Below, piece by piece: positions 3,787-43,977 of a stretch of DNA of 43,977 nt. Under the pieces are notes generated by a model. The model searched no databases. It was given only the letters and a program-made list of their open reading frames with translations, and was not told where the DNA came from. The DNA lies in IMG/VR virus record IMGVR_UViG_3300042940_001755; one strand, 5' to 3'. The DNA is from a virus (Duplodnaviria > Heunggongvirae > Uroviricota > Caudoviricetes). The position numbers and the translations under genes were made by a program. Position 1 is the first letter of the stretch; each line of letters starts with the position of its first letter.

Positions 3787-4652
3787 AAAGCCTCCACAAG
3801 TTTAATAGTGCCGCAGTCCATCAAAATGCCGTCATCATATGCCATTCCTGTCACTGTATCTGAGTCGAAATAACAATTTGCAACAACATTGAGAATGCGG
3901 ATAGAAGAGATAGTTCCGGAAAGGCGTAGTTCAGGGAACAAAATCAAGTGATTACTTTGCACTTCCTTGACCATGTACACCTTAGAGGTGTTATTTAGCT
4001 GAACAAACCAACCCGGCACAAGTCGCCAATCAGCTGCAGTAGCCTCCGGGACTACGATATGGTTTGCGAGTGGCGCCCTTGTACATGGCACAGTCTCAGG
4101 GGCGCCGTCTTTGTCATAATTCGAAGGGAAGTGAACCTTGCAGGGAGTGCTAGCAGCAGCTAACAGCTTCGCTGGATCTCCATTCTGTGATGCGTTTACT
4201 GTGATTCCCTGTGAAGGGTGAGAAGCGCTAGCAGGCACAACAGGATAGTAACCTTGCCCTGCTGAAGTCGCTACGAATAGAAAATCAACGCCTGGCGCGA
4301 CTTGTGTCAGCCTGTCCGGGATTGTTATAGTCGCTCGTGCCCCATTACGCGCGGAGATAGCGTCATAATCGTACTCCTTGCGCATCGCCATAATGGCGCC
4401 ATAGTTCTGAGGGAATGCTACTTGTGTCTGTGTGTGATACCCTTTCGTAACAAGTTCAACCATCAGCTCGTTAGCATCAACGAGCAACGGTGTCAATTTT
4501 GTAGAGATCTCCCAACGTTGGGCTCCTCTGCGCAATACAATTCGCTTGAGAGAAAGGGTATCCGTTTGAAACACAGGGTTATTGCTGCGGACAGTCAATG
4601 GGACTGTAAATTCCGCAATAACATCAGTGCCTCTTAGGATACCGTATTTCAT
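3783..4652 (-). CDS. Distal tail (Dit/gpM-like) protein, 289 aa
   Basis: First gene after the tape measure; N-terminal TDTLSLKR...GAQRWEI pattern resembles siphovirus distal-tail proteins. Mainly synteny. Confidence 0.55.
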   Translation of the reverse strand: MKYGILRGTDVIAEFTVPLTVRSNNPVFQTDTLSLKRIVLRRGAQRWEISTKLTPLLVDANELMVELVTKGYHTQTQVAFPQNYGAIMAMRKEYDYDAISARNGARATITIPDRLTQVAPGVDFLFVATSAGQGYYPVVPASASHPSQGITVNASQNGDPAKLLAAASTPCKVHFPSNYDKDGAPETVPCTRAPLANHIVVPEATAADWRLVPGWFVQLNNTSKVYMVKEVQSNHLILFPELRLSGTISSIRILNVVANCYFDSDTVTGMAYDDGILMDCGTIKLVEAL

Positions 4653-4658
4653 ACCGAG

Positions 4659-7600
4659 TTAACTCCTATAGTTAGACTCTTTGTTGTTGTTGTTCACTCC
4701 TTGAGTAATATCAGGGAGCATCTTGTAAATCTCAGATCTTGTTTGGCGACTGATATCTCCGGTGATGTTCATATTGACTACACTGGACTTATTACTCACT
4801 GCCTTTTCGCCAGCCTTTGCTGCAGCTGTGTTGGACGCCATTGTGGGCGTTGTCAAGATCGCAGGAGAGGTAGGTATTGAACCAACACCGCCACCCATTG
4901 CTCTCTTTATAACAGAACCACTATTGATAGCCTTTAGCAAGCCAGCGTGCTGAGCAGTTGCTTTAGCATTCACTACAAATTCGCCATTAGATAGCAGCGC
5001 GGGAATGCTGTCAGAAGTAGAAGTGCCTGGTCCAGATACATGGCCTCCATCGGCAAACATACCCATGAACATTCCGCCAAGTCCTGACAAGCCGTCCATG
5101 ATGCCACCACCAGCGCCACCTAGTAAGTCACCTATACCCCCTAGTGCACCTGATAGACCGTCCATAATACCGCTCATAGCGCCTGACAGACCGTCCATAA
5201 GACCGTCCATCAATCCACTAAGACTGTCCATCAGACCACCTAGCATATCGTCCATCATGGTCGTCATGTCATCCATCATCGTTGACAATCCAGAGAACAT
5301 TCCTTGGTCTGGCTGCATAGGTCCTACGAAGCTATCTGCGCTACTACCGCCTCCGAACAGAGAAGACAATCCGCCGCCACCCTTTCCGCCGCCCAGTACA
5401 GAGCTCAAAGAACTATTCTGTGCAGTGATTCCATCCGGCAATGCACTTGAAAGTGCTGACTGGATGTCAGGAGAGGCGTTCATGAAATCAGCAGTCTTTT
5501 CAATAGGCACTCTGGTCAGACCACTGGCAGCATCTCCTCCTCCGCCATCAAACCAACTTGAGATTGAATCACCAATACCACTGAAGAATCCAGAGTCAGG
5601 TTTTGTCATCTCATCTAGCTTGCTGGTCAATCCCTTGGCATCCACTGGTGACATCATTGCTGATGTTGTAGTCTTTCCTGTGAACTTATCCAAGGTATCA
5701 GTCAAGCTGCCTTCTGCAGCAGCGACAGGGCTCATGTCTACGGATGTATCTGGCGAAGTAATACCTAGCCAATCAGTGATACCGCTGAACATTCCTTTGT
5801 CGCCCTTAGTGGTTGGCAGAGCCTTCGACATAGCGGACGAAATACCATCAGCAACACCACCTTTACCGCCACCCATCAGCATGAGAGCTGCCTTCTGTAA
5901 CTCTTTAGCAGCCTTCTCTAACTCAGCATTAGCAGAGCTAGCGTTGATAGAACCTACCAGCGACATTATAGGAGATGCAAGACTCATTGCAGTACCGATG
6001 AAGCCTCCTTCAGCGCGATGTACAAGCTCGCTGCCGGAGTTGATAGCCTGTAATAGACCAGCATGTTTGCGCGTAGCTTTGGCATTTACCACAAACTCGC
6101 CATCAGATAACATTGCAGGAATACTATCAGACTTAGAAGTGCCTGGTCCGGATACATGGCCGCCTTCAGCAAAACCCAGGGATGACCAAATACTAGCGAT
6201 ACCACCGACTAAGCCGCCTGTGCCGTCCATGTTCTCACCCATGATCATCTTCTTAAGGAAGCCCCAGATGCCATTGTCTCCGATAAGCCAGTCTAGCATT
6301 CCTCCTTCGCCCTCTTTTGTTTTAGAGGAGAAGATATTTGCAATAGAACCGTTCTTACCTAAGAAGCCGTCATCACCGATGAGCCAGTCGAACATGCCGT
6401 CTGATTTACCAGCTATTACAGACTTCATACCGTCATCTAGCCATGGATTGCCACCTGCAGACTTGATACTACTAGTAAGCTCACCTCTACTCTTCTCAGT
6501 GAAAAGATCAGATAAGAATGAAGAAGTTTTGTCAGATTTACTATCGAAGAGAGAGGCGTTGAATGGGTCAAAGTCTTCTCCAGAAGAGCCAAACAAGGTG
6601 TTTATATTACCTATGTCTGCTTTCCCGTAGCCTGCCCCTTTCAGTACATCTTGACTAATACCGTTCTTGAGAAGATATCCAGCGCCTATGACACCTGCCC
6701 CGCCTAACAGCCAAGGTGCAACGGATCCTATAGTGTCCATGATACCGCCGCTAGAAGCTGCTGCTGCTGCTGCTGCCCCGACACCTCCAGCACCCATCAA
6801 TCCTACAGATGCAGCAAATTTATCTACTGCAGAGCTGAAGGTATCTTCCGGAGTTTTACCTACGAGACTTCCACCTCCAAGGCCTGATAGTAAATCACCA
6901 ACACCAGGGATACTTCCCAGCAAACTTCCTGGTCCGGCGAACAACATGCTACCAGTTCGCTCCATCATCTTATCCATCATGCCGCCTCTTCCGAAGCCGA
7001 AAGAAGCTGCGAGACCTTTGGACAATGTATCTGTTACATGACCGGTGAAGCCATCTAGCATTTTCTTGCCAATACCTTTAGTATTGCCTTCTAGTAAATC
7101 TTTGAAGGTAGACTCAGCGAAGCCTTTCATTCCATCCTTGAAGGACTTACCGGCATTCTCAATAGACTTAGCATTCTCCATAATTGAAGTTGTAAGGCTT
7201 TCAAGACCAGACTGATACTGTAATAAAGCTTCTTGAGCCTTAGCCGCATCTTCAGCGTTGGTGGCACTGTCTAATGCCTCTTTAGCAAGCTTAATCTGCT
7301 CTGCGAATGTTGTAAGCTCCGCTGATTGTGCGATGTCTGCTAAGTTGTAAGCAATAGGCTCAATGCCTAAACCTTCGTTCCCGGTAGCTACTCTGCGCTT
7401 TGCATGAAAATCACTTTTGTAAGCTTCAAAGTCTGCCTCGTACTGTGCAACTGAGCGATCATACGGCTTCTCGCGAGTAACTCTACCTGCGAGATGTTGA
7501 GTCTCGTCTGCCGCACGCTCTTTGATGTTTATAACTGTATCCACTAATTGCTCAGAGGACGCAGCTACTTGGTTGCTTACTTCTTGGAAGGAAGCATTTA

Positions 7601-20786: not shown

Positions 20787-21974
20787 TTAGCCGTGGAAGA
20801 TTGGTAAGATACCTAAAGACAACACAGATGAAGCTTTACGATCCCAAACGCCTGTCGTAGCGTCTGTAGAAGTAGCTGCAGTTAATACTTTCTGTGTGCC
20901 GCCTTCCATTACACCGTAGTAGTTAGCATCTGAAGGGAATGCGTCTTTGCTACCAATCCAGTCGTAACCAGCAGGTGCAACAACATATCCCCAACGATTC
21001 CACACAGATGTAGAGCCGCCGCCTTTGAATTTACGCGCATCACGGTAAATTTCAGTAGGTTCTGGAACTGACAATGCTTTCATTGCCAATGCACCAGGCA
21101 ATACTACGAATGAGCAATCTGTACCAGCAATGTCAACGCCTGTACCAGTGTTGATTTTAGCCAATTCAGCCGCAGAGAATGCCGCAGATGCACGTGTAAC
21201 AACTAAACGGAATTTACCTTGGAAGATAGAATCGAAGTTCATGTTGCCTTCAGTGATGCGATCTTCGTCAACTAAGTTAGCTGAGCGGAAAGACGACAAT
21301 GTTTTAGGGCTAACAACTAAGTAGCACCAATCTGGTTCATAGTCTTTGAACGCTGTACCGAATGCTTGTAAGATTGTTTCCGCTCTTACCGCACCTGAGA
21401 TAGCCGCGTTAGTACCTGCAGCACCACCACTAGCCAACATTAACGCAGTGTTACCTGCATCGTAGTAGAAACCGTAGTTTTTGCTGGTAGGATCGTTGGT
21501 GAAAGATTGACCGCCTAAGCCGCCCGCTTTCGCGCCGTACAATGCTTCGGTCATCGCCACACCTTTCAACACAGACAAGATAGCGTTGTGTTCATCTTGC
21601 GCACGAGTTTCACCAAAGTCACGACCCATTTTAGCTAAGCCGTCTTGTTGTGTAACAACTTGCTGCATGTTGACTTTCTCGGCACCATGCGTACGCACAG
21701 TTTTGATGTATGTTAAGTAATCAGAGTTGAAGCTTGTAGCCGTACCATCAGTAGCATCTGTTAAAGATGCAACGTTGATGGTAGGGTTCATCGGTTTGAA
21801 CCAACGAACTTGACCAATAAAGGTTTCTGTGTTGGTGTCGATTAATGGGTTGTCGCCAACGATACCAGTGCCTGATAATTTCTTAGCAGTTGTGTAAGCT
21901 TCATCACTGTATGCTGTGATTGCTTCTTGTAAAACATAATTTGTTGCGCCTGCAACGTTAGTACGAACTGTCAT
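20787..21974 (-). CDS. Major capsid protein, 395 aa
   Basis: Size, position after the scaffold and before the adaptor, strongly biased codon usage, coat-like sequence. Confidence 0.85.
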   Translation of the reverse strand: MTVRTNVAGATNYVLQEAITAYSDEAYTTAKKLSGTGIVGDNPLIDTNTETFIGQVRWFKPMNPTINVASLTDATDGTATSFNSDYLTYIKTVRTHGAEKVNMQQVVTQQDGLAKMGRDFGETRAQDEHNAILSVLKGVAMTEALYGAKAGGLGGQSFTNDPTSKNYGFYYDAGNTALMLASGGAAGTNAAISGAVRAETILQAFGTAFKDYEPDWCYLVVSPKTLSSFRSANLVDEDRITEGNMNFDSIFQGKFRLVVTRASAAFSAAELAKINTGTGVDIAGTDCSFVVLPGALAMKALSVPEPTEIYRDARKFKGGGSTSVWNRWGYVVAPAGYDWIGSKDAFPSDANYYGVMEGGTQKVLTAATSTDATTGVWDRKASSVLSLGILPIFHG

Positions 21975-21978
21975 TTAC

Positions 21979-22695
21979 TTAATTCCGGTTAGGTAGAGGT
22001 TTTCCCTCTGAGATGTGTTGTAACACTTCCTCTTGAGTCATCGCGAAGATAGAGCTCTTTTGAGTAGTGCCAGGTGTAGGAGAAGTCGCTTGACTTCCTG
22101 TTCCTGAAGATACTTTGGCCTTGAATAAGAAGGCATTATCTTCATTCTCAGCGAATACTTTCATAAAGTCACGCACTGAAATACCAGACTTGTGCACCCA
22201 TTTGCCGTCATCGGTTTGGACCAATTCAGCGAGTACCTTGCCATGAGTCATTTCAGCTGCTGTATTGCCACGGAATTGGTAGGTAGACAGCACAGCCGTC
22301 ACTTCATTGTCGCGTGATAACTCAGTGTTTCTTTTCGCCAACGCAGCTAGCTTGGCATCCTTCTCTGCTAATTGCATGTCGAAGGCTTCTTTATGCTTGC
22401 CTTCTTCTGTCAATCGTGCAATTTCTGCATCGCGCTCTTTCTTCTCTAAGGCATCAGCCTTAGCCTGAGCAGCGTCTCTTTCGGCAAAAGCACTGTCTAA
22501 CTTACCCTTGATTGGCTTTAACTGCTCTTGAACCATTGCTGCCAATTCTTCTTCCGTGATGGTAAGAGTCTTCTTAGTAGAAGCGGTTTCGGTAATAGTT
22601 GCCGCAGCAGGTGCTGGAGCAGGCTTTGCCGTTTCGGTTGCAGGGGCAGGTGTCGCAGCTTCTTGTGCTGCTGGTTGGGTTGTTTCTTCGCTCAT
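21979..22695 (-). CDS. Capsid scaffolding protein, 238 aa
   Basis: Pro/Ala/Thr-rich N-terminus, long coiled coil, NEDNAFLFK...SSGTG C-terminal pattern; precedes the capsid gene. Confidence 0.8.
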   Translation of the reverse strand: MSEETTQPAAQEAATPAPATETAKPAPAPAAATITETASTKKTLTITEEELAAMVQEQLKPIKGKLDSAFAERDAAQAKADALEKKERDAEIARLTEEGKHKEAFDMQLAEKDAKLAALAKRNTELSRDNEVTAVLSTYQFRGNTAAEMTHGKVLAELVQTDDGKWVHKSGISVRDFMKVFAENEDNAFLFKAKVSSGTGSQATSPTPGTTQKSSIFAMTQEEVLQHISEGKPLPNRN

Positions 22696-22790
22696 TTTAA
22701 TTTCCTAGATTACAAATCTATTGGGGTTCGGCACAGGCACAGCACTGACCGGTTGATTTGCCGAAGTGTCTGCTTCAGCTCAGATTACTG

Positions 22791-23228
22791 CTAAAGGATT
22801 GCCCAGTCTTCCGACAAAGTGTCGTTGATACTCGGTACCCACGTACTTGTAGAGCCGTTTACATTCTTGATCGCCAAGTATGAGTTTAACTGTTCAGATT
22901 CGGGGACTAATGTCACATACATGCCCTTGCCATTCCACCCTTTTCGGCTAACAGATGCACCACGCTTAAGAGCCTCAATTGCCAGACCGAAAGTCATCCT
23001 TTCAATCTCACGGTAGCTGGAGTCAAATTGCACTTTAGGTGTCCAAGAGATGTAACCGCCGTAATTGGGGTGATTTGGAGTACACGCACCACCATTATCT
23101 TCCACCAAGTACCCGTCATCCTCGCCATTCTCATTCGTAGGCAAATCCCATCCGCGCAATTCGTTGTAGGCAAGACGTGTCATCGGGGTGGCAGTTACTA
23201 ACTTACTCCCGTAATATGCCTTCATCAT
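22791..23228 (-). CDS. DUF2829 / Tad2-like (Thoeris anti-defence sponge family) protein with extra N-terminal domain, 145 aa
   Basis: MTFGLAIEALKRGASVSRKGWNGKGMYV...WVPSINDTLSEDW is the DUF2829 signature; this family includes Tad2 as recalled. Confidence 0.75.
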   Translation of the reverse strand: MMKAYYGSKLVTATPMTRLAYNELRGWDLPTNENGEDDGYLVEDNGGACTPNHPNYGGYISWTPKVQFDSSYREIERMTFGLAIEALKRGASVSRKGWNGKGMYVTLVPESEQLNSYLAIKNVNGSTSTWVPSINDTLSEDWAIL

Positions 23229-23551
23229 GCGAACACCGAGTTGTGACCGGCTTCAGAGAGCCAAAGATGCTGCTTGAGGCGATAGCCCTCTAACTGCCAA
23301 ACTTTATCTCTGGCATTGCCGCGTGCAACAGAGCGCCCTATGGCTTCATTGAAGTTCTCTGGAGACGCACATGCTGATTCTCCAGTGACTTGGAAACCGT
23401 TTGTTAAGGTAAGTAAGCACACCGTGACAGTAGTGTCAGGAAACACATAATACGCTTCACCAATAATCTGCGCATCAATGTGTTCAGGGGACAAGCGAGG
23501 AGCAGTAAGTCCTTTCGCGACAATCTCCTCCTCTAATTGCTGCTCGTTCAT
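23225..23551 (-). CDS. Phage gp49/gp66-family protein (candidate Acb4-like sponge), 108 aa
   Basis: TAPRLSPEHID...TVTVCLLTLTNGFQVTGESACASPENFNEAIGRSVA...VWQLEGY matches the Phage_gp49_66 pattern; the Acb4 link is recalled, not verified. Confidence 0.7.
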   Translation of the reverse strand: MNEQQLEEEIVAKGLTAPRLSPEHIDAQIIGEAYYVFPDTTVTVCLLTLTNGFQVTGESACASPENFNEAIGRSVARGNARDKVWQLEGYRLKQHLWLSEAGHNSVFA

Positions 23552-23739
23552 ACGAATGCCTCGATTCTTTCTGCCAAGATATACGCGTACTCACGCATCG
23601 CAGCTAACTGACGTGTCATTCTGGTGTATTCCTCTGGAGACGCAGTAGAGTCATCACGACTCAAAAAGTCATTTAAGGCATTGATCTTTAAAAGTAATTC
23701 GTCATTCTCTTGAATGACTCTTTGTTGATAAGGTTGCAT
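23548..23739 (-). CDS. Small helical protein (crAss001_48-like), 63 aa
   Basis: MQPYQQRVIQE.DEL..KI.AL.DFL...Q..AM.EY..IL.ERI..F pattern; ATGA-coupled to the next gene. Confidence 0.65.
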   Translation of the reverse strand: MQPYQQRVIQENDELLLKINALNDFLSRDDSTASPEEYTRMTRQLAAMREYAYILAERIEAFV

Positions 23740-23741
23740 TG

Positions 23742-24122
23742 TCAGCCTATTCCGTAAAAGCCTAAGTCATTGTCATATTTTGACGGCTCAGGTATTGGAG
23801 AGAGAATGTGTTCTTCGGTAAGGATATCTGATTCCTTGAGTAACACACCGTTAATCCGAGAGCGACCAGCCACCGGAATGATCCCAGTATCGATTGCCTC
23901 ATCTAAGTATTTTTGGTAAAGCTCATCTGGGAGACCACGTGCGTGCATCTCATCTAATGTTGCCTTGATTGACTGCTTGGAGACTGCTTCAGCATAAAGC
24001 TCACGGAGACCTGCTCTGGCCTTTATCATATCAGCACTGTTGGCAAAGAAAGCATCATGGATGGTGCTGGTAGGGATGTTGTTCTTCTTGCCCCATAGGT
24101 GAAAGCCTTTTACGAGTGTTGC
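23742..24122 (-). CDS. MuF-RNA polymerase exon 2 (126 aa, contains catalytic motif C IHDAF)
   Basis: Manual translation ATLVKGFHLWGKKNNIPTSTIHDAFFANSAD runs in frame into the listed 23742..24029 ORF; IHDAF corresponds to T7 RNAP IHDSF (Asp812). Confidence 0.9.
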   Translation of the reverse strand, partial: ATLVKGFHLWGKKNNIPTSTIHDAFFANSADMIKARAGLRELYAEAVSKQSIKATLDEMHARGLPDELYQKYLDEAIDTGIIPVAGRSRINGVLLKESDILTEEHILSPIPEPSKYDNDLGFYGIG

Positions 24123-25077
24123 CGTTATATTACAGCCAGTTCGTTAATCTTGCTGTGTGTGTCAGATTTTGAGGTTAATAATTAATGGTTTTTCCAGATC
24201 TTTCCGGACTCAATTCCTGCGATGGTGCCTCTATGGACGCCATACGTTGCAGCAATTACTTTCTTTGGCACTGAATCTGCTAGCAGTAGCCTTATCTCAG
24301 CTACCGATTCTGGTGTTAATTTCCCTTTCTGCGAAAGATTAGGGAAGGCGTCTCTGGAGATATGCTTCCAAGTCTTGTTAAGACGAATGTGGCTTATAGC
24401 CCCTGTGCTGCACCCAAATGCTTTTGCAATATCTGCGGTAGATTCGCCTCTAGCGCAACGCTCAAGAATTAGGATGACATCCTTCTCAGCCAGCAGCGCG
24501 TGTACGCTCTCCTCACCCACTTTGCCATTTCCTTCTGCATACGAGTGTTGAATATTTTCTGCAGTAGTGGACCACTCTAAATTAGCAACAGCGTTATTGG
24601 CTGGGTTACTATCTTTATGGTTAACAACAGGCTTTCCCATAGGATTGTCGATAAACGTCTCTGCCACCAACCGGTGCACTTGGACTGTCTTGACTACACC
24701 ATTGTGCCACATGCCAAATTTGACGTAACCTTGAGAGGTAATGTTCCCTGCCAGCAAGGTCCCTGTGTTGTCATTCCTAAGTCTGCCTTGATCGCTGACA
24801 GAGTATTGTGTATCTTTGTATTGTTTCCAAATTTCATTCATTTGTAGCTTCTCCAATGTGTTCTGACACACATCTCCATATTCCGATGGAGTCTAGACTA
24901 TATCATACATCCTTGTCCTTGCGCTTCGGCATCACTTGACACCTACTCTACTCTCTTATTACGATTTCGATAGTCGTTGCACCCCGCTATATAGTAGCAT
25001 CCTGCTACACAGGGCTCAGTATTACCCGTTCTGGGCTTCCACTGAATTCACAAGGTTTTAAAACGACAGCTTTGTTT
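24123..25077 (-). mobile_element. Group I self-splicing intron (955 nt, IA-like core) with homing endonuclease ORF
   Basis: Exon 1 ends in U and the intron ends in G (24123). P1: exon AAACGAU pairs with intron GUCGUUU with a terminal U-G. Core elements: P AAUUCAGUGGAA (25037-25048), Q AAUACUGAGC (25014-25023), R GUGCAACGACUAUCG (24968-24982), S AUGAUAUAGUCUA (24894-24906); P3 CCUUGUG/CGCAAGG. Removal restores the reading frame. Confidence 0.92.
24182..24841 (-). CDS. Intron-encoded NUMOD4-HNH homing endonuclease (I-HmuI-like), ~219 aa
   Basis: EIWKQYKDTQYSVSDQGRLRN (NUMOD4-like); VHRLVAETFIDNP...VNHKDSNPANNAVANLEW (HNH); two C-terminal HTH-like repeats; SD GGAG before the ATG at 24841. Confidence 0.9.
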   Translation of the reverse strand: MNEIWKQYKDTQYSVSDQGRLRNDNTGTLLAGNITSQGYVKFGMWHNGVVKTVQVHRLVAETFIDNPMGKPVVNHKDSNPANNAVANLEWSTTAENIQHSYAEGNGKVGEESVHALLAEKDVILILERCARGESTADIAKAFGCSTGAISHIRLNKTWKHISRDAFPNLSQKGKLTPESVAEIRLLLADSVPKKVIAATYGVHRGTIAGIESGKIWKNH

Positions 25078-28000
25078 ATCGTTTGAGTGGTTGCCATTAA
25101 CCGCGTAAGCTGTCCTGGCCTTTGTAACATCTGCAATGTCGTTAATCTTGCCTTCTTTGTTGATGATCTGTTCCCACCAAGTTGCTTCTGTCTTTTGAGG
25201 AACCTGAATGACATTCATTACTGTATTGCCATCCTTGTCTTTATAGAGCAGTTTCTCTTCGAAGGCTTGGGTGAAGTTCTGCTCTAGAACCTTCCCATCA
25301 AAGTTCACCCAAGGGACATTTGTCCAGCTCTTTGGGAGCTTATTTGAGTAGAATAGCTGAAAGCCCTTCGTAACATCTAAGATCTGAAACAGTTCTATTT
25401 TAGCGTACTTGGCACCTGTTCGGCGATCTGTACTTGCCTGCTTTCCTCCTAGAAGGATGTCAGCCAGTGTAGAGTCTGGTTTAAACCAACTAAATCGCTT
25501 CAGCACCTGTTCAGTCAATGGAGTTTTAGGGTCAACACCTAACATCTCACTGAAGCGAGATCCGAACAGGACTTTCACCTTATTATCTAGACCTAACAAA
25601 TCACCCACAACTCTATCAACTGTCTTGCCTTTCTTGCGTTCACCAAAGAGCGTGATTTCACCAATAGCCTTCCAATCGAAGTCAGCGTTCTTAGGCTTGG
25701 CATGGCGAAGATAGTCTTCTGCCAGCCTTCCGAAGAACTTAGTGAAATCTTTAAGGATCGGCACTTGTTCACCAAGGTGATCACTCATGATGTTCGCAAT
25801 ATCCTTAAAGTCCTTTGGTGTGACAACCAAATCGTACGTTGCAGACATCTTCTCGACTAAAGCACGGTTGCCAGGGTCTAAGAAGTAAAGTTGCTCCATA
25901 ATCTCGTCACCGGGATCTAGACCTTTGTTGAAGATATCTCTGACATTAGCTCTCAAGGTCATCAGCTCGTCAAAGGTGTCAGGGTCGTAAGACTTATAGC
26001 GGGCTGCTCTGGCAGAGATCTCGTCCAGGATGGTATCACGCTCTGACGCCTTCACTACTAAGGTGTTGCCCTGCTTCTCTAGTATCTTGGCTAATTTGCC
26101 TTCAACATTGAGAATACCTGTACGTTCTCCAGCACCGTAAAAGGTAACCATGTTCTGAGCCTTCGCCGCCTTCCTTAAGTCTTTCTCAGATAGGCCGAGA
26201 CGCTCATTCATGACCTTGAAACGTGGGTCATTGTAAGTAGCCGCAGCTATCTCATCGTATAGGCGGCGCTTCTGGGTGGTAGGAACTACATTGCTAAGTT
26301 CAGCTAACTGTTTGTTCTTAGTTGCCAGCGCGATAATCTGAGCACCTGAGGATGAAGCATCTTGCTCTAAAGCAAGAGCTGTTTTGTAACTATTCATCTT
26401 CGCCACAACATCAGTTGCACGTGGTGCAGCTAATGCCTTGACACTCTCAGCACCGATTTCCTTGTTCAACCTCTCAATTAGTCCAATCGCGTCCCCTGGA
26501 ACTACCTTAAGGCCGGCATCATTTGCAGCAATTAATGCAGCCTCCTGATTGGTCTTCATAAAGTAAGGACTATCAGCATCTTTAATTACAGTAGCCGCGC
26601 CAAATCTCTCAGCCTTTAAAGCTCTTTTCTGAGCCTCTATTAGCTTAAAGACTCTGGCACTCCTTGGAACCGAAGCAGACTTCAGATGCTCCTCCATAAA
26701 CTCACCGAGCTCCTCCACCACTTGCATGGCAATGTAACGAGGTGTGTCACCTTTAGAGCGCTGTTCGAATTTAGCCTTATTCTCCGCCACCTTGGCTGCA
26801 GAGAATTTCTCTCCTGTGGCTTGGTCGAACGTCTTATAAGTAGCCCTCTCCATCCGCTCTTTGGTAAGCGAAATGTCAGCGGTATGCAGCCATTTAAAGG
26901 CTTCGCCAACATCCTTAGATGTCAATTTACCTTCTGATGCAAGCCTTAATAAGTCTGATTGCGCCTGTATTACCTCTGCGGGACTGCTAATGTAATCAGG
27001 ATCAGTCTTATTATTCACACCAAGCAAACGCACTAACCCTGCTGCATCTTGCCGTTCAGATAATAGGCCTGGGGTAGATACCACCTCGCTAACAGCAGCA
27101 GAAGTCCCGTCTTTGAGATAATTGTCAATCTTAGCAGCTTCCATAGCGAATCTAAAGAACTTACCAAGCTCTTCGCCTTCGACCTGTTGCACCATGCTTG
27201 ACTCAAGAACACCTCTGATGTCTGCCGGTTTACCTCTCATCAGCTTATTGCCGACATCGACCATCTCAGGCCACAATCTATCGGCAATCTTCTGCCGCCC
27301 AGTAAATGTCAATGAGTTGTCTTTGCCTTCAAAGGCATCAGTCAGGCCTCCTAAGAAGGCGCCAGTCTGATCTCTGAAATTCAAGTAACCGTCATATCCG
27401 AGAATCTTCTCTTCCTTCGTGTTAAGGAATGGCCGGAAAGATTCACCAGACTGAGGGCTAATCAACCCACGGTCATAAATGCGAGCCCGATGATCAATAA
27501 ACGGGTTATTAGAGAATGAATCACCCGATTTACGCAGCCACTCCATTGATTTAAAGCGTTCATACGCATCTCCACGTCCTGCAATGTAGTGTTTGTACTC
27601 ATTAAGTCCATCGTAGAATTTAGCCTTACCTCTGTCATCCACAAAGTAAAGAACCTTTTGAACGGCATCATAGAAATCAGGGTCCACCCTATATTCAGTC
27701 TGGGATGCCCAATTTAAGGCGTCCACAGTGTTCTTGTCAACAAAAGACTCAGGGAAGTCACTAAACGAGCTTGTAGAGGTAATCGGGATACGAGTATCAT
27801 AATTATCTTCAGTAAAGTACGTCTTGTAGCCCTCTCTGAACTTAAGACGATTCTCAGGTTTCGTTACAGCAACCCGCAAACCCAGCTCTACCTTTCTGGT
27901 GAGGTGGGAGTACTCTTGCACTCTAGGGTCTGTGACCCTAATGTTGTATGCGAGCGTATCGTAATACGGGCCAAATAGATTCCCTGACATTCGCGACTTC

Positions 28001-30051
28001 ATGCGTCGTTTCTGGACGCCAAAAGTCTCTACCTCAAACAGATCGGTATTGCCTTCCAGTAATGCCAGACCTGTCTCATACCACTTATCCTTTGTACCGT
28101 TTAAGTTAGCTTGGTTGTACAGATCTCTGCCCAATGCGATAGCTAGCTGGTCTCTGTCAGGGGTATCCGCTAATGACAATCGGTTGGCGAAGCGTAAGTA
28201 GAACATCTGCTTACTTGCTTCATCGAGGCGATGGTTGATTATTAGTGGAATATGTCTGTCAAAAGCATCCCTTAGCTCTCTCGCAATCTTAGGGGCAGTT
28301 CTGTCTTCCCACAAATTCTTGGCCTTAATATTGCCAATGAAGTTGTCATGAAGATCTTGAAGCTGAGTTGGTCCCAGAACAGGGTCAATGTAGTTATCTT
28401 GAAGTAACTTCTTTAAAGGGTCAGAGCCGCTTCTTATCTGAGTCTCAATCGAATCCGAAACGTTCATCACGTCAAACTTGATTTGTGATTGTGATACAGC
28501 TTTGAAGTTTCCCCAACGCTCGCCATTCTTACGATAACGTGTGAATACAATCCTCAAGTTATCAGCAATAACAGCTCTTTCATTGGCTCCCATCTTTTCA
28601 TTCAAGCCTTCTACGAAGGTAACTATGAAGTCTTTATCTACCTGCTTCAAATCTGGACTATTCCGAATCAATTTCAGATTGTTATTAAGCACGCCTAGAT
28701 TTGGCTGATACAGACGGGTGTCCTCATAACGCCCTGTTACTGGATTGAATATCATCTGATCTTCGCGGGGGAGGCTTGTTAGCACTCGCCGCTTCATCGC
28801 TTTCTTGTTACCAATAAGCGCTCCACGGAAGTTAGTTAGTGAGAGAGTGCCGTCAAGCTCGCCTGCTTGTAAGAGATAATAGTCTTTCAGTGTCTGTGTC
28901 AATGCAGGATCCGAGAAGAAATCTTCAGGCATTGTGGCATGAAGTTGCATGGCGTCTAACTTCGCCTTAGCGTTAGCAAAGCGCATGGTGTCGTTAGGGA
29001 TAGTGTAAGTGCTATCAGTGATCTGTCTCAGTTCATTCAAGCCTACTGTGTTTCCCTCAGGATTAGAGAATTTGTCAACGGTAAGTTGACCTGTGTTGAA
29101 CATCTCAACCTTCTTGTAATCCCCCAGATGCCGTAGCTGTGTCTGTTTAGGTTGGCGGAGAAGCCAATCATTATAAGACTCATGCAGAGGCAACATCCCG
29201 TCGTAATAAGCTTGCTGATCTTTAGTGAGACTTCCGAGATTCCTCTTTCTGACCTGAGCGACTGCCTCCAACTTTCCCATGTCATCCCAAGACTTAAGGA
29301 CGGGGGTGGTAGTTGATCTACATCTATAATGGGCAGGAGGTAGATGCTCTGTATCACCAATAGGGTAAATCTGACCATCTCGATGAGCACAAATTGGAGT
29401 GGTACGGGAATCAAGTACAGCAACATACTGCCACCCGCTAATAGCTTTTTCATTCGCCTTATAAATCTCATGATCGGCCTGATTCGTCACCGAGGTGACT
29501 GCCGTGGTTACTAATGCAGCTGCTTGGTTCTTCGATATCGCAGAGATAGCTCTAACACTCTTAGCTAACTCGCTGTTAGTGTTGCCCTCTGCAAGACCTC
29601 TCCGAATAGCAGACTCAATTCTTATCTTTTCACCTTCAGAAATGCCTGCCCAGCCCTGCGCCAGAGTCTTTTCTTCGTGCAGAGGTCTCTCTAGCACAAT
29701 CTCTTCCGCAATACGCCGATTAGGTCTTTCTGTCTTCCAGATGTCTCCGAAGAGCTTTTCGACTCCACCATACGTGAATGAGGCTTGGTCACTTGCGAGG
29801 CCCAGTAAGTCATTCTTAGTAGAGCGAAATGCATCTGTATATGTCTTTTTAATCTCCTTATCCACAGCCTCTCTGAATATCAAAAAGCCCGCAGTGGAGA
29901 AGTTGGCGTCATTGACTAACTTATCAACACGAACGGCATGGCCATCTAGGATCAACTCGACTCTTCCGGCAACTCTCCGCTCAAATAAGCGCACCATTGC
30001 GGCTCTGTCAATGATTCTATCGTACAGCTCTGTATTCGCATTTATAGCCAT
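25078..30051 (-). CDS. MuF (SPP1 gp7/Mu gpF) minor head protein fused to T7-like single-subunit RNA polymerase, exon 1 (1658 aa)
   Basis: N-terminal WQYVAVLDSRTTPICAHRDG...PPAHYRCRST (MuF). RNAP motifs: DHRARIY (DxxGR-like, ~27476-27496), EQDASSSGAQ (motif A, ~26338-26367), RKAAKAQNMVTFYG (motif B, ~26134-26175), AVNGNHSND (T7 NFVHSQD). Confidence 0.92.
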
Positions 30052-43406: not shown

Positions 43407-43620
43407 AGCCTCCTTGATTAGCTTTTAACTTTAAGAGCACTTTAGGGACACAATCTTATATCGCTTGCTGTAAATCCTAAGGAGTGTTAAAACAGCTGGT
43501 GATAATGTATTGCGTCTCTGAAGTGCTCTCGTTGGTGTTGTTCCACATAAAGTAGTCTCTCCTTTAAAGGACTCTAAGGGATTATCTTTAATAGTAATTA
43601 TTAATGATTATTGTGATATT

Positions 43621-43660
43621 AACTCTAACACCCATTATGGCACTCTAACACCCATTATGG
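43621..43660. repeat. 20-bp tandem duplication (A/C)ACTCTAACACCCATTATGG
   Basis: 43621-43640 and 43641-43660 differ only at the first base. Confidence 0.9.
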
Positions 43661-43977
43661 TTCTTTAAAGCTTCTTTTCAGTCTCTTTAAAGCTCCTTTA
43701 TAGATACTTTAAAGTACTTTAATAGTATATTGTAATAATTATTATCATAATTTCCATTATGGCCTTTAATGACCTTTAAAGTACCATAATAGTCTTTAAA
43801 GGCCTTTAACACCCATTATGGTTCTTTAAAGCTTCTTTTCAGTCTCTTTAAAGCTCCTTTATAGATACTTTAAAGTACTTTAATAGTATATTGTAATAAT
43901 TATTATCATAATTTCCATTATGGCCTTTAATGACCTTTAAAGTACCATAATAGTCTTTAAAGGCCTTTAACACCCAT
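43646..43977. repeat. 161-bp tandem direct repeat (two full copies plus the start of a third, cut by the window end)
   Basis: TAACACCCATTATGGTTC starts at 43646 and 43807, and TAACACCCAT at 43968; the two full copies look identical by eye. Confidence 0.92.

Follow-up and report, generated by a model that had tools for sequence, protein, structure and literature searches.

What do three small overlapping genes do between the RNA polymerase gene and the head genes of an uncultured tailed phage? This question is raised by positions 22791-23739 of a 43,977-nt stretch of viral DNA (IMG/VR record IMGVR_UViG_3300042940_001755; hereafter the window), in which all large ORFs are on the minus strand. 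On the basis of the present results, the region is very probably a compact counter-defence cassette that encodes three separately translated nucleotide-signal sponges and forms a 949-nt insertion before the spacer leading to the scaffold gene. All three protein families have been described previously; it is their location that is instructive, and the open item is the N-terminal module of one of the proteins.

The initial annotation had placed three ORFs (63, 108 and 145 aa), linked by ATGA overlaps, between the stop codon of the polymerase and the scaffold gene, and both the coordinates and the junction letters agreed with this layout. The genes for the 63-aa protein (23548-23739), the 108-aa protein (23225-23551) and the 145-aa protein (22791-23228) are all on the minus strand, and the plus strand reads TCAT at 23548-23551 and 23225-23228, so that the coding strand has ATGA at each junction. 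Upstream of them, the frame at 23745-24122 encodes the C-terminus of an RNA polymerase, which showed 52% identity to the end of EBPR siphovirus 1 gp49 and 40% identity to the end of the MuF-RNAP (annotated as a 'head morphogenesis' protein) of DSS3_VP1. Because these C-termini align and all end in YGIG, the polymerase stop codon could be placed at 23742-23744, 2 nt ahead of the ATG of the 63-aa gene; the last exon of the MuF-RNA polymerase gene, together with its stop codon, occupies 23742-24122 (minus strand). Further upstream, a long ORF contains Phage_Mu_F and RNA_pol domains within 25048-30051. On the other side, a spacer of 95 nt (22696-22790, minus strand) separates the end of the cassette from the scaffold gene (21979-22695, minus strand; phrog_206), downstream of which lies the major capsid gene (20787-21974, minus strand). 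The capsid protein shares 49% identity with its counterpart in EBPR siphovirus 1 and 40% with the one in DSS3_VP1 (Naomviridae). When the region was compared with 50,697 phage records by megablast, zero matches were obtained, that is, no named close relative, and by sequence the phage carrying the cassette is novel. At the end of the window (43586-43977), upstream of the whole minus-strand gene train, we also observed AT-rich tandem repeats (two 161-nt copies that are 94% identical and include a 33-nt sub-repeat), which could be a regulatory or origin region.

The three products had been considered members of sponge families, and a profile check upheld this for each of them: their scores of 62.7, 105 and 78 bits (63-, 108- and 145-aa proteins, respectively) were 2.5 to 4 times the curated Pfam cut-offs and are far higher than expected by chance. 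The 63-aa protein matched PF21825 (Sequestin, formerly crAss001_48; cut-off 24.8) with residues 3-60 covering profile positions 2-60 of 61. Tal et al. found this family because its members are often fused to Tad2 and Acb4, and named it Sequestin (bioRxiv 10.1101/2025.07.12.664507). Its members act as 3'cADPR sponges, form an antiparallel homodimer that binds this signal, and inhibited type I Thoeris in 10 of 13 tested cases (bioRxiv 10.1101/2025.07.12.664507). A sponge role, which had been proposed for the 63-aa protein mainly by association, now has an experimental basis at the level of the family. Residues R7, E11, Q44 and R58 correspond to R7, E11, Q45 and R59 of SequestinB, and their columns were conserved in 96, 100, 95 and 91% of 56 family sequences, respectively; mutants of E11, Q45 and R59 abolish the activity of SequestinB (bioRxiv 10.1101/2025.07.12.664507). 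The full-length Pfam match and the same R/E/Q/R spacing constitute the likeness to known Sequestins (SequestinA/B, T4 Y16O), whereas the protein of the window is unfused, comes from an uncultured MuF-RNAP phage and is only predicted to bind the signal. A sequence search of the PDB with the 63-aa protein returned matches at chance level only, that is, no solved relative detectable by sequence.

The 108-aa protein belongs to PF13876 (Phage_gp49_66; cut-off 27), with residues 20-95 covering profile positions 1-81 of 82, and it also matched the structure of SPO1 Acb4 (PDB 9E4W) in a phmmer search (E 1.4e-6). The initial annotation had named Phage_gp49_66 as the Acb4 family, and rightly so: Chang et al. 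described Acb4 as the founder of PF13876 and as a tetrameric sponge of 3'3'-cGAMP (bioRxiv 10.1101/2024.12.30.630793). We compared ten ligand contacts of SPO1 Acb4 (K36, F48, E49, V56, Y57, F62, N63, I66, T70 and K81), four of which were identical in the 108-aa protein. The core residues F48, F62, N63 and I66 are kept as F53, F67, N68 and I71, whereas the guanine-reading K36 and E49 are replaced by T41 and Q54, and the phosphate contacts Y57, T70 and K81 by A62, V75 and Q86. All eight PF13876 homologs tested by Chang et al. bound 3'3'-cGAMP despite their divergence, and in homologs encoded by phages that infect Gram-negative hosts the ligand range was reported to differ (bioRxiv 10.1101/2024.12.30.630793). 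The ligand range of the 108-aa protein may differ from that of SPO1 Acb4, and the residues do not allow it to be predicted. In addition, an Acb4-like domain (phmmer 1e-7) was observed in the 164-aa gp61 of EBPR siphovirus 1 (L093:13107-13601), whose gene lies in the tail module; therefore, sponge genes in structural operons recur in this phage group.

The 145-aa protein matched PF11195 (DUF2829; cut-off 25) with residues 78-144 covering profile positions 1-72 of 73. The initial annotation had assigned this protein to DUF2829 and hence to Tad2, which was borne out by both the Pfam score and the fold, but it had overlooked that the protein consists of two domains: a Tad2 domain (residues 78-145; 22791-22997 with the stop codon, minus strand) preceded by an N-terminal module (residues 1-77; 22998-23228, minus strand), hereafter the N-module. 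Sequence matches in the PDB (phmmer) included ModTad2 (9EIB), 8V3E, HgmTad2/AcrIIA7 (8KBI) and SPO1 Tad2 Gp34.65 (8SME). An AlphaFold2 model of the whole protein had a mean pLDDT of 85.7, and its Tad2 domain, which shows the family's fold of one helix and then an antiparallel sheet, aligned with ModTad2 (9EIB_A; VIA-align Z 9.6, rmsd 2.3, 69 residues aligned) and with HgmTad2 (8KBI_A; Z 9.4). The Foldseek comparison with sponges that had been proposed earlier also found a structural match for this domain, with probability 1.00 to 8V3E, 8WJE and 8SMF. Identity to ModTad2/MoTad2 (9EIB, 8V3E) and HgmTad2 (8KBI) was 48-51% over 69 residues, and the GWNGKGM and W..S..D motifs are preserved. Residues W21, N22 and G23 of the gcADPR pocket of HgmTad2 correspond to W98, N99 and G100, and residues W87, L88, S90, T92 and D93 correspond to W130, V131, S133, N135 and D136, so that six of the eight pocket residues are identical and the two changes are L to V and T to N. 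In contrast with these structures, the 145-aa protein has the additional 77-residue module and a very short beta2-beta5 segment. This segment forms the cyclic-dinucleotide pocket in HgmTad2, and a pocket of that type would not be expected here. Members of the Tad2 family are homotetramers that sequester Thoeris signals; homolog by homolog they sequester 3'cADPR, His-ADPR, N7-cADPR, cyclic dinucleotides or cUMP/cCMP, and inhibit Thoeris I/II/IV, CBASS or Pycsar. The target signal of this Tad2 cannot be named because ligand specificity varies so widely within the family; its closest solved relative, ModTad2, binds His-ADPR.

The N-module (residues 1-77) is a separate beta-alpha-beta-beta-alpha domain (pLDDT 94.6 when folded alone), to which a Pfam scan of the 145-aa protein assigned zero families. 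A profile of this module, searched against 1.84 billion proteins, retrieved 3250 cluster representatives, of which 1504 had E <= 1e-10. In the 150 best hits, the partner domains identified by Pfam were Tad2 (47), Sequestin (42), Acb4 (11) and the Acb2/Tad1 hairpin (2). When our own domain profiles were used, 103 of these 150 relatives had the module fused to Tad2, Sequestin or Acb4, the architectures being N-Tad2 (48), N-Sequestin (36), N-Acb4 (6), Acb4-N-Sequestin (3) and other arrangements of sponge domains (10); in the remaining 47 the module was solitary or beside a region outside these sponge domains. It should be noted that these 47 proteins (P0003, P0008, P0033, P0054, P0100, P0121, P0129 and others) have 20-158 residues outside Tad2, Sequestin and Acb4, and the longer regions may be further partner domains. 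Atlas searches found the shape of the module within Tad2, Sequestin and Acb4/Sequestin clusters, as well as in stand-alone viral proteins of 75-78 aa.

Prediction of a two-copy complex of the N-module gave a symmetric, strand-swapped homodimer with an ipSAE of 0.69 (best control 0.00), with a contact agreement of at least 93% between runs and a partner pLDDT of at least 87. This ipSAE reflects how confident the model itself is and is not a measured value. Of the proteins solved as one-chain pairs, 20 of 30 reached it, compared with 1 of 23 of those solved as a single chain, and the module probably homodimerises. Eleven of its 19 nearly invariant residues are located in the predicted interface. 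This interface also includes D44 of the window copy (23097-23099), a position at which 94% of relatives have an aromatic residue. The module is acidic overall (median net charge -3). Foldseek found nothing in the PDB at E <= 0.001. The best VIA-align match, DUF1653 (3BE3), reached only Z 3.9 and shares a common small-barrel arrangement that does not amount to kinship, and chromo- or Tudor-like barrels, at Z of about 3, were likewise dismissed as generic small barrels. The structures of Tad1, Acb2, Lockin and TadIV-1 were absent from the fold-search lists for the module; a distant link may nevertheless exist.

To define the insertion site, 80 IMG/VR loci were gathered via the polymerase C-terminus, 70 of which show both the end of the polymerase and the capsid gene. 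In 66 of these 70 relatives, the distance between the polymerase stop and the capsid start was 659-985 nt and held the scaffold gene only; the corresponding distance in the window is 1768 nt. Genes for Sequestin, Acb4, the N-module or Tad2 were found in none of the 80 loci (70 informative). In the closest relative (L095, 79% identity), the polymerase stop is followed by a spacer of 85 nt (L095:4382-4466) that aligns with window 22696-22790; this alignment defines the cassette as a precise insertion of 949 nt, bounded by the polymerase stop on one side and the conserved spacer on the other. The spacer contains a hairpin (22760-22779) whose 7-bp stem stays paired through changes on both sides, and which may serve as a signal for processing or attenuation where the polymerase gene gives way to the head genes. 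Overall folding of the spacer RNA was no better than that of shuffled sequence (z 0.06). The GC content of the cassette (0.485-0.50) is slightly higher than that of its flanks (0.43-0.47), a difference so small that composition gives no date for the insertion.

Cargo at the slot between polymerase and scaffold genes was observed in only 4 of the 70 relatives. One of them (L118; IMGVR_UViG_3300019867_000001, 4560-5580) has an 82-aa gene without known family and a 256-aa homolog of Acb3 (PF25187, 217.6 bits), a described inhibitor of CBASS cyclases. The other three (L120-L122) share a 1.5-kb insert (L120:4379-5855) with reverse-strand ORFs of 114 and 77 aa, for which zero Pfam matches were found. 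The slot contains a single 71-aa ORF (gp50, zero Pfam matches) in EBPR siphovirus 1, and the scaffold gene comes directly after the MuF-RNAP gene in DSS3_VP1. Other relatives have small gaps at this junction (228-376 nt), in which zero convincing ORFs were found. Thus, the junction takes cargo only rarely, and anti-signalling genes are two of the three cargo types seen.

The combination of genes was also examined in 80 loci that encode a relative of the 145-aa protein. An Acb4 gene was nearby in 17 of these loci, usually adjacent or overlapping, and a Sequestin gene in 5; in two contigs of N4-like size (L059 and L065), each of the three has its own gene, and the order is Acb4, N-Tad2 and Sequestin. 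N4-like phages have been reported to possess an anti-signalling hotspot beside the virion RNA polymerase gene, with Tad2, Acb4 and Sequestin (bioRxiv 10.64898/2026.06.04.730250), and the sponge combination is therefore already a known kind. The window resembles this hotspot, including the Acb4-Sequestin protein Ab09 gp59, in that a Tad2/Acb4/Sequestin cluster lies beside a virion-type RNA polymerase gene. However, the polymerase of the window is a MuF fusion from a different phage group, its slot belongs to the head operon, each of the three sponges has its own gene, coupled to its neighbours and in a different order, and few relatives have cargo there, as shown above. A 2026 review lists seven characterised sponge families, three of which are present in the cassette.

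With regard to expression, a scan of 21900-25200 for promoters and terminators yielded no more hits than shuffled sequences did, with no signal above background inside the cassette, and window-wide direct repeats revealed no phage-promoter-like motif near it. Given these results, the 2-nt gap and the ATGA overlaps, the three genes probably share one transcript with the last exon of the polymerase and with the head genes, to which they would be translationally coupled. The position of the genes suggests late expression, whereas the cGAMP-binding activity of SPO1 appears early in infection, which counts against such timing. Structural proteins are common triggers of Thoeris/CBASS-type systems, and a slot immediately ahead of the scaffold and capsid genes would provide high expression as these triggers appear. 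Each product would probably form its own homo-oligomer and sequester one class of signal: the Sequestin protein is expected to be a dimer that binds 3'cADPR, the signal of type I Thoeris; the Acb4 protein a tetramer that binds cyclic dinucleotides of CBASS; and the Tad2 protein a tetramer that binds an ADPR-derived Thoeris signal, with an extra module that probably dimerises.

The reading of the region as a sponge cassette is supported by the Pfam scores, the PDB matches, the kept Sequestin and Tad2 residues, the exact insertion and the presence of Acb3 in the same slot of a relative, and other explanations have to be weighed against it. One or more of the genes might have drifted to another job, for example RNA or protein binding, with the fold retained. 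In its structure deposition HgmTad2 bears the name AcrIIA7, as it also inhibits type II CRISPR-Cas, and a 2026 paper reported that it hijacks tracrRNA; moreover, the Acb4 fold resembles a dsRNA-binding domain (bioRxiv 10.1101/2024.12.30.630793), and fewer than half of the compared contacts are kept in the 108-aa protein. However, the gcADPR pocket of Tad2 and the key residues of Sequestin are conserved, divergence did not prevent any tested Acb4 homolog from binding cGAMP, and a second phage of this group has another anti-CBASS gene at this position, so that we consider a change of function very improbable. It also seems very improbable that the sponges are made late and that some of them are packaged, reach the next host cell along with the DNA and the polymerase, and work from the very onset of that infection. 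The cassette does have the gene of a presumed virion polymerase (the MuF fusion) on one side, with which it is translationally coupled, and the scaffold gene on the other, and the N-module has no known role. On the other hand, none of the present results favours packaging, the published sponge studies consulted do not report it, sponges act stoichiometrically and need many copies, the N-module and the sponge genes also occur in many other genomic contexts, and a Pfam scan of the three proteins found no packaging signal or MuF-like targeting domain.

A different question is whether the N-module is itself a ligand-binding or effector-blocking counter-defence unit, in which case the cassette would hold four active modules rather than three. 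About two-thirds of its top relatives are fused to one of the three sponge domains and two carry the Acb2/Tad1 hairpin, Sequestin was discovered by the same fusion logic, stand-alone forms exist, and most of the nearly invariant residues fall in the interface of the predicted homodimer. However, the acidic character of the module and the loss of the conserved aromatic residue at D44 in the window copy argue against an active role, and the module could be a mere solubility or assembly aid; an active module is thus possible but somewhat doubtful.

Returning to the sponge cassette, the window presents sponge families as separate, translationally coupled genes in a capsid operon, in a slot that a relative uses for a different anti-CBASS gene. 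It offers a clean natural test case for how the production of sponges has to be timed with respect to the structural proteins by which Thoeris and CBASS are set off, and a further independent context in which the N-module, a good candidate for experiments, travels with sponge domains. A phage with this many sponges should strongly trigger sponge-sensing defences such as Panoptes. We tentatively suggest, as an idea that may well prove wrong, that the N-module is an undescribed dimeric counter-defence unit (a signal sponge or an effector blocker) and that the polymerase-scaffold junction is a dedicated anti-signalling slot. If so, this junction of MuF-RNA-polymerase phages would host anti-signalling genes that are co-expressed with the very capsid proteins by which those defences are triggered.
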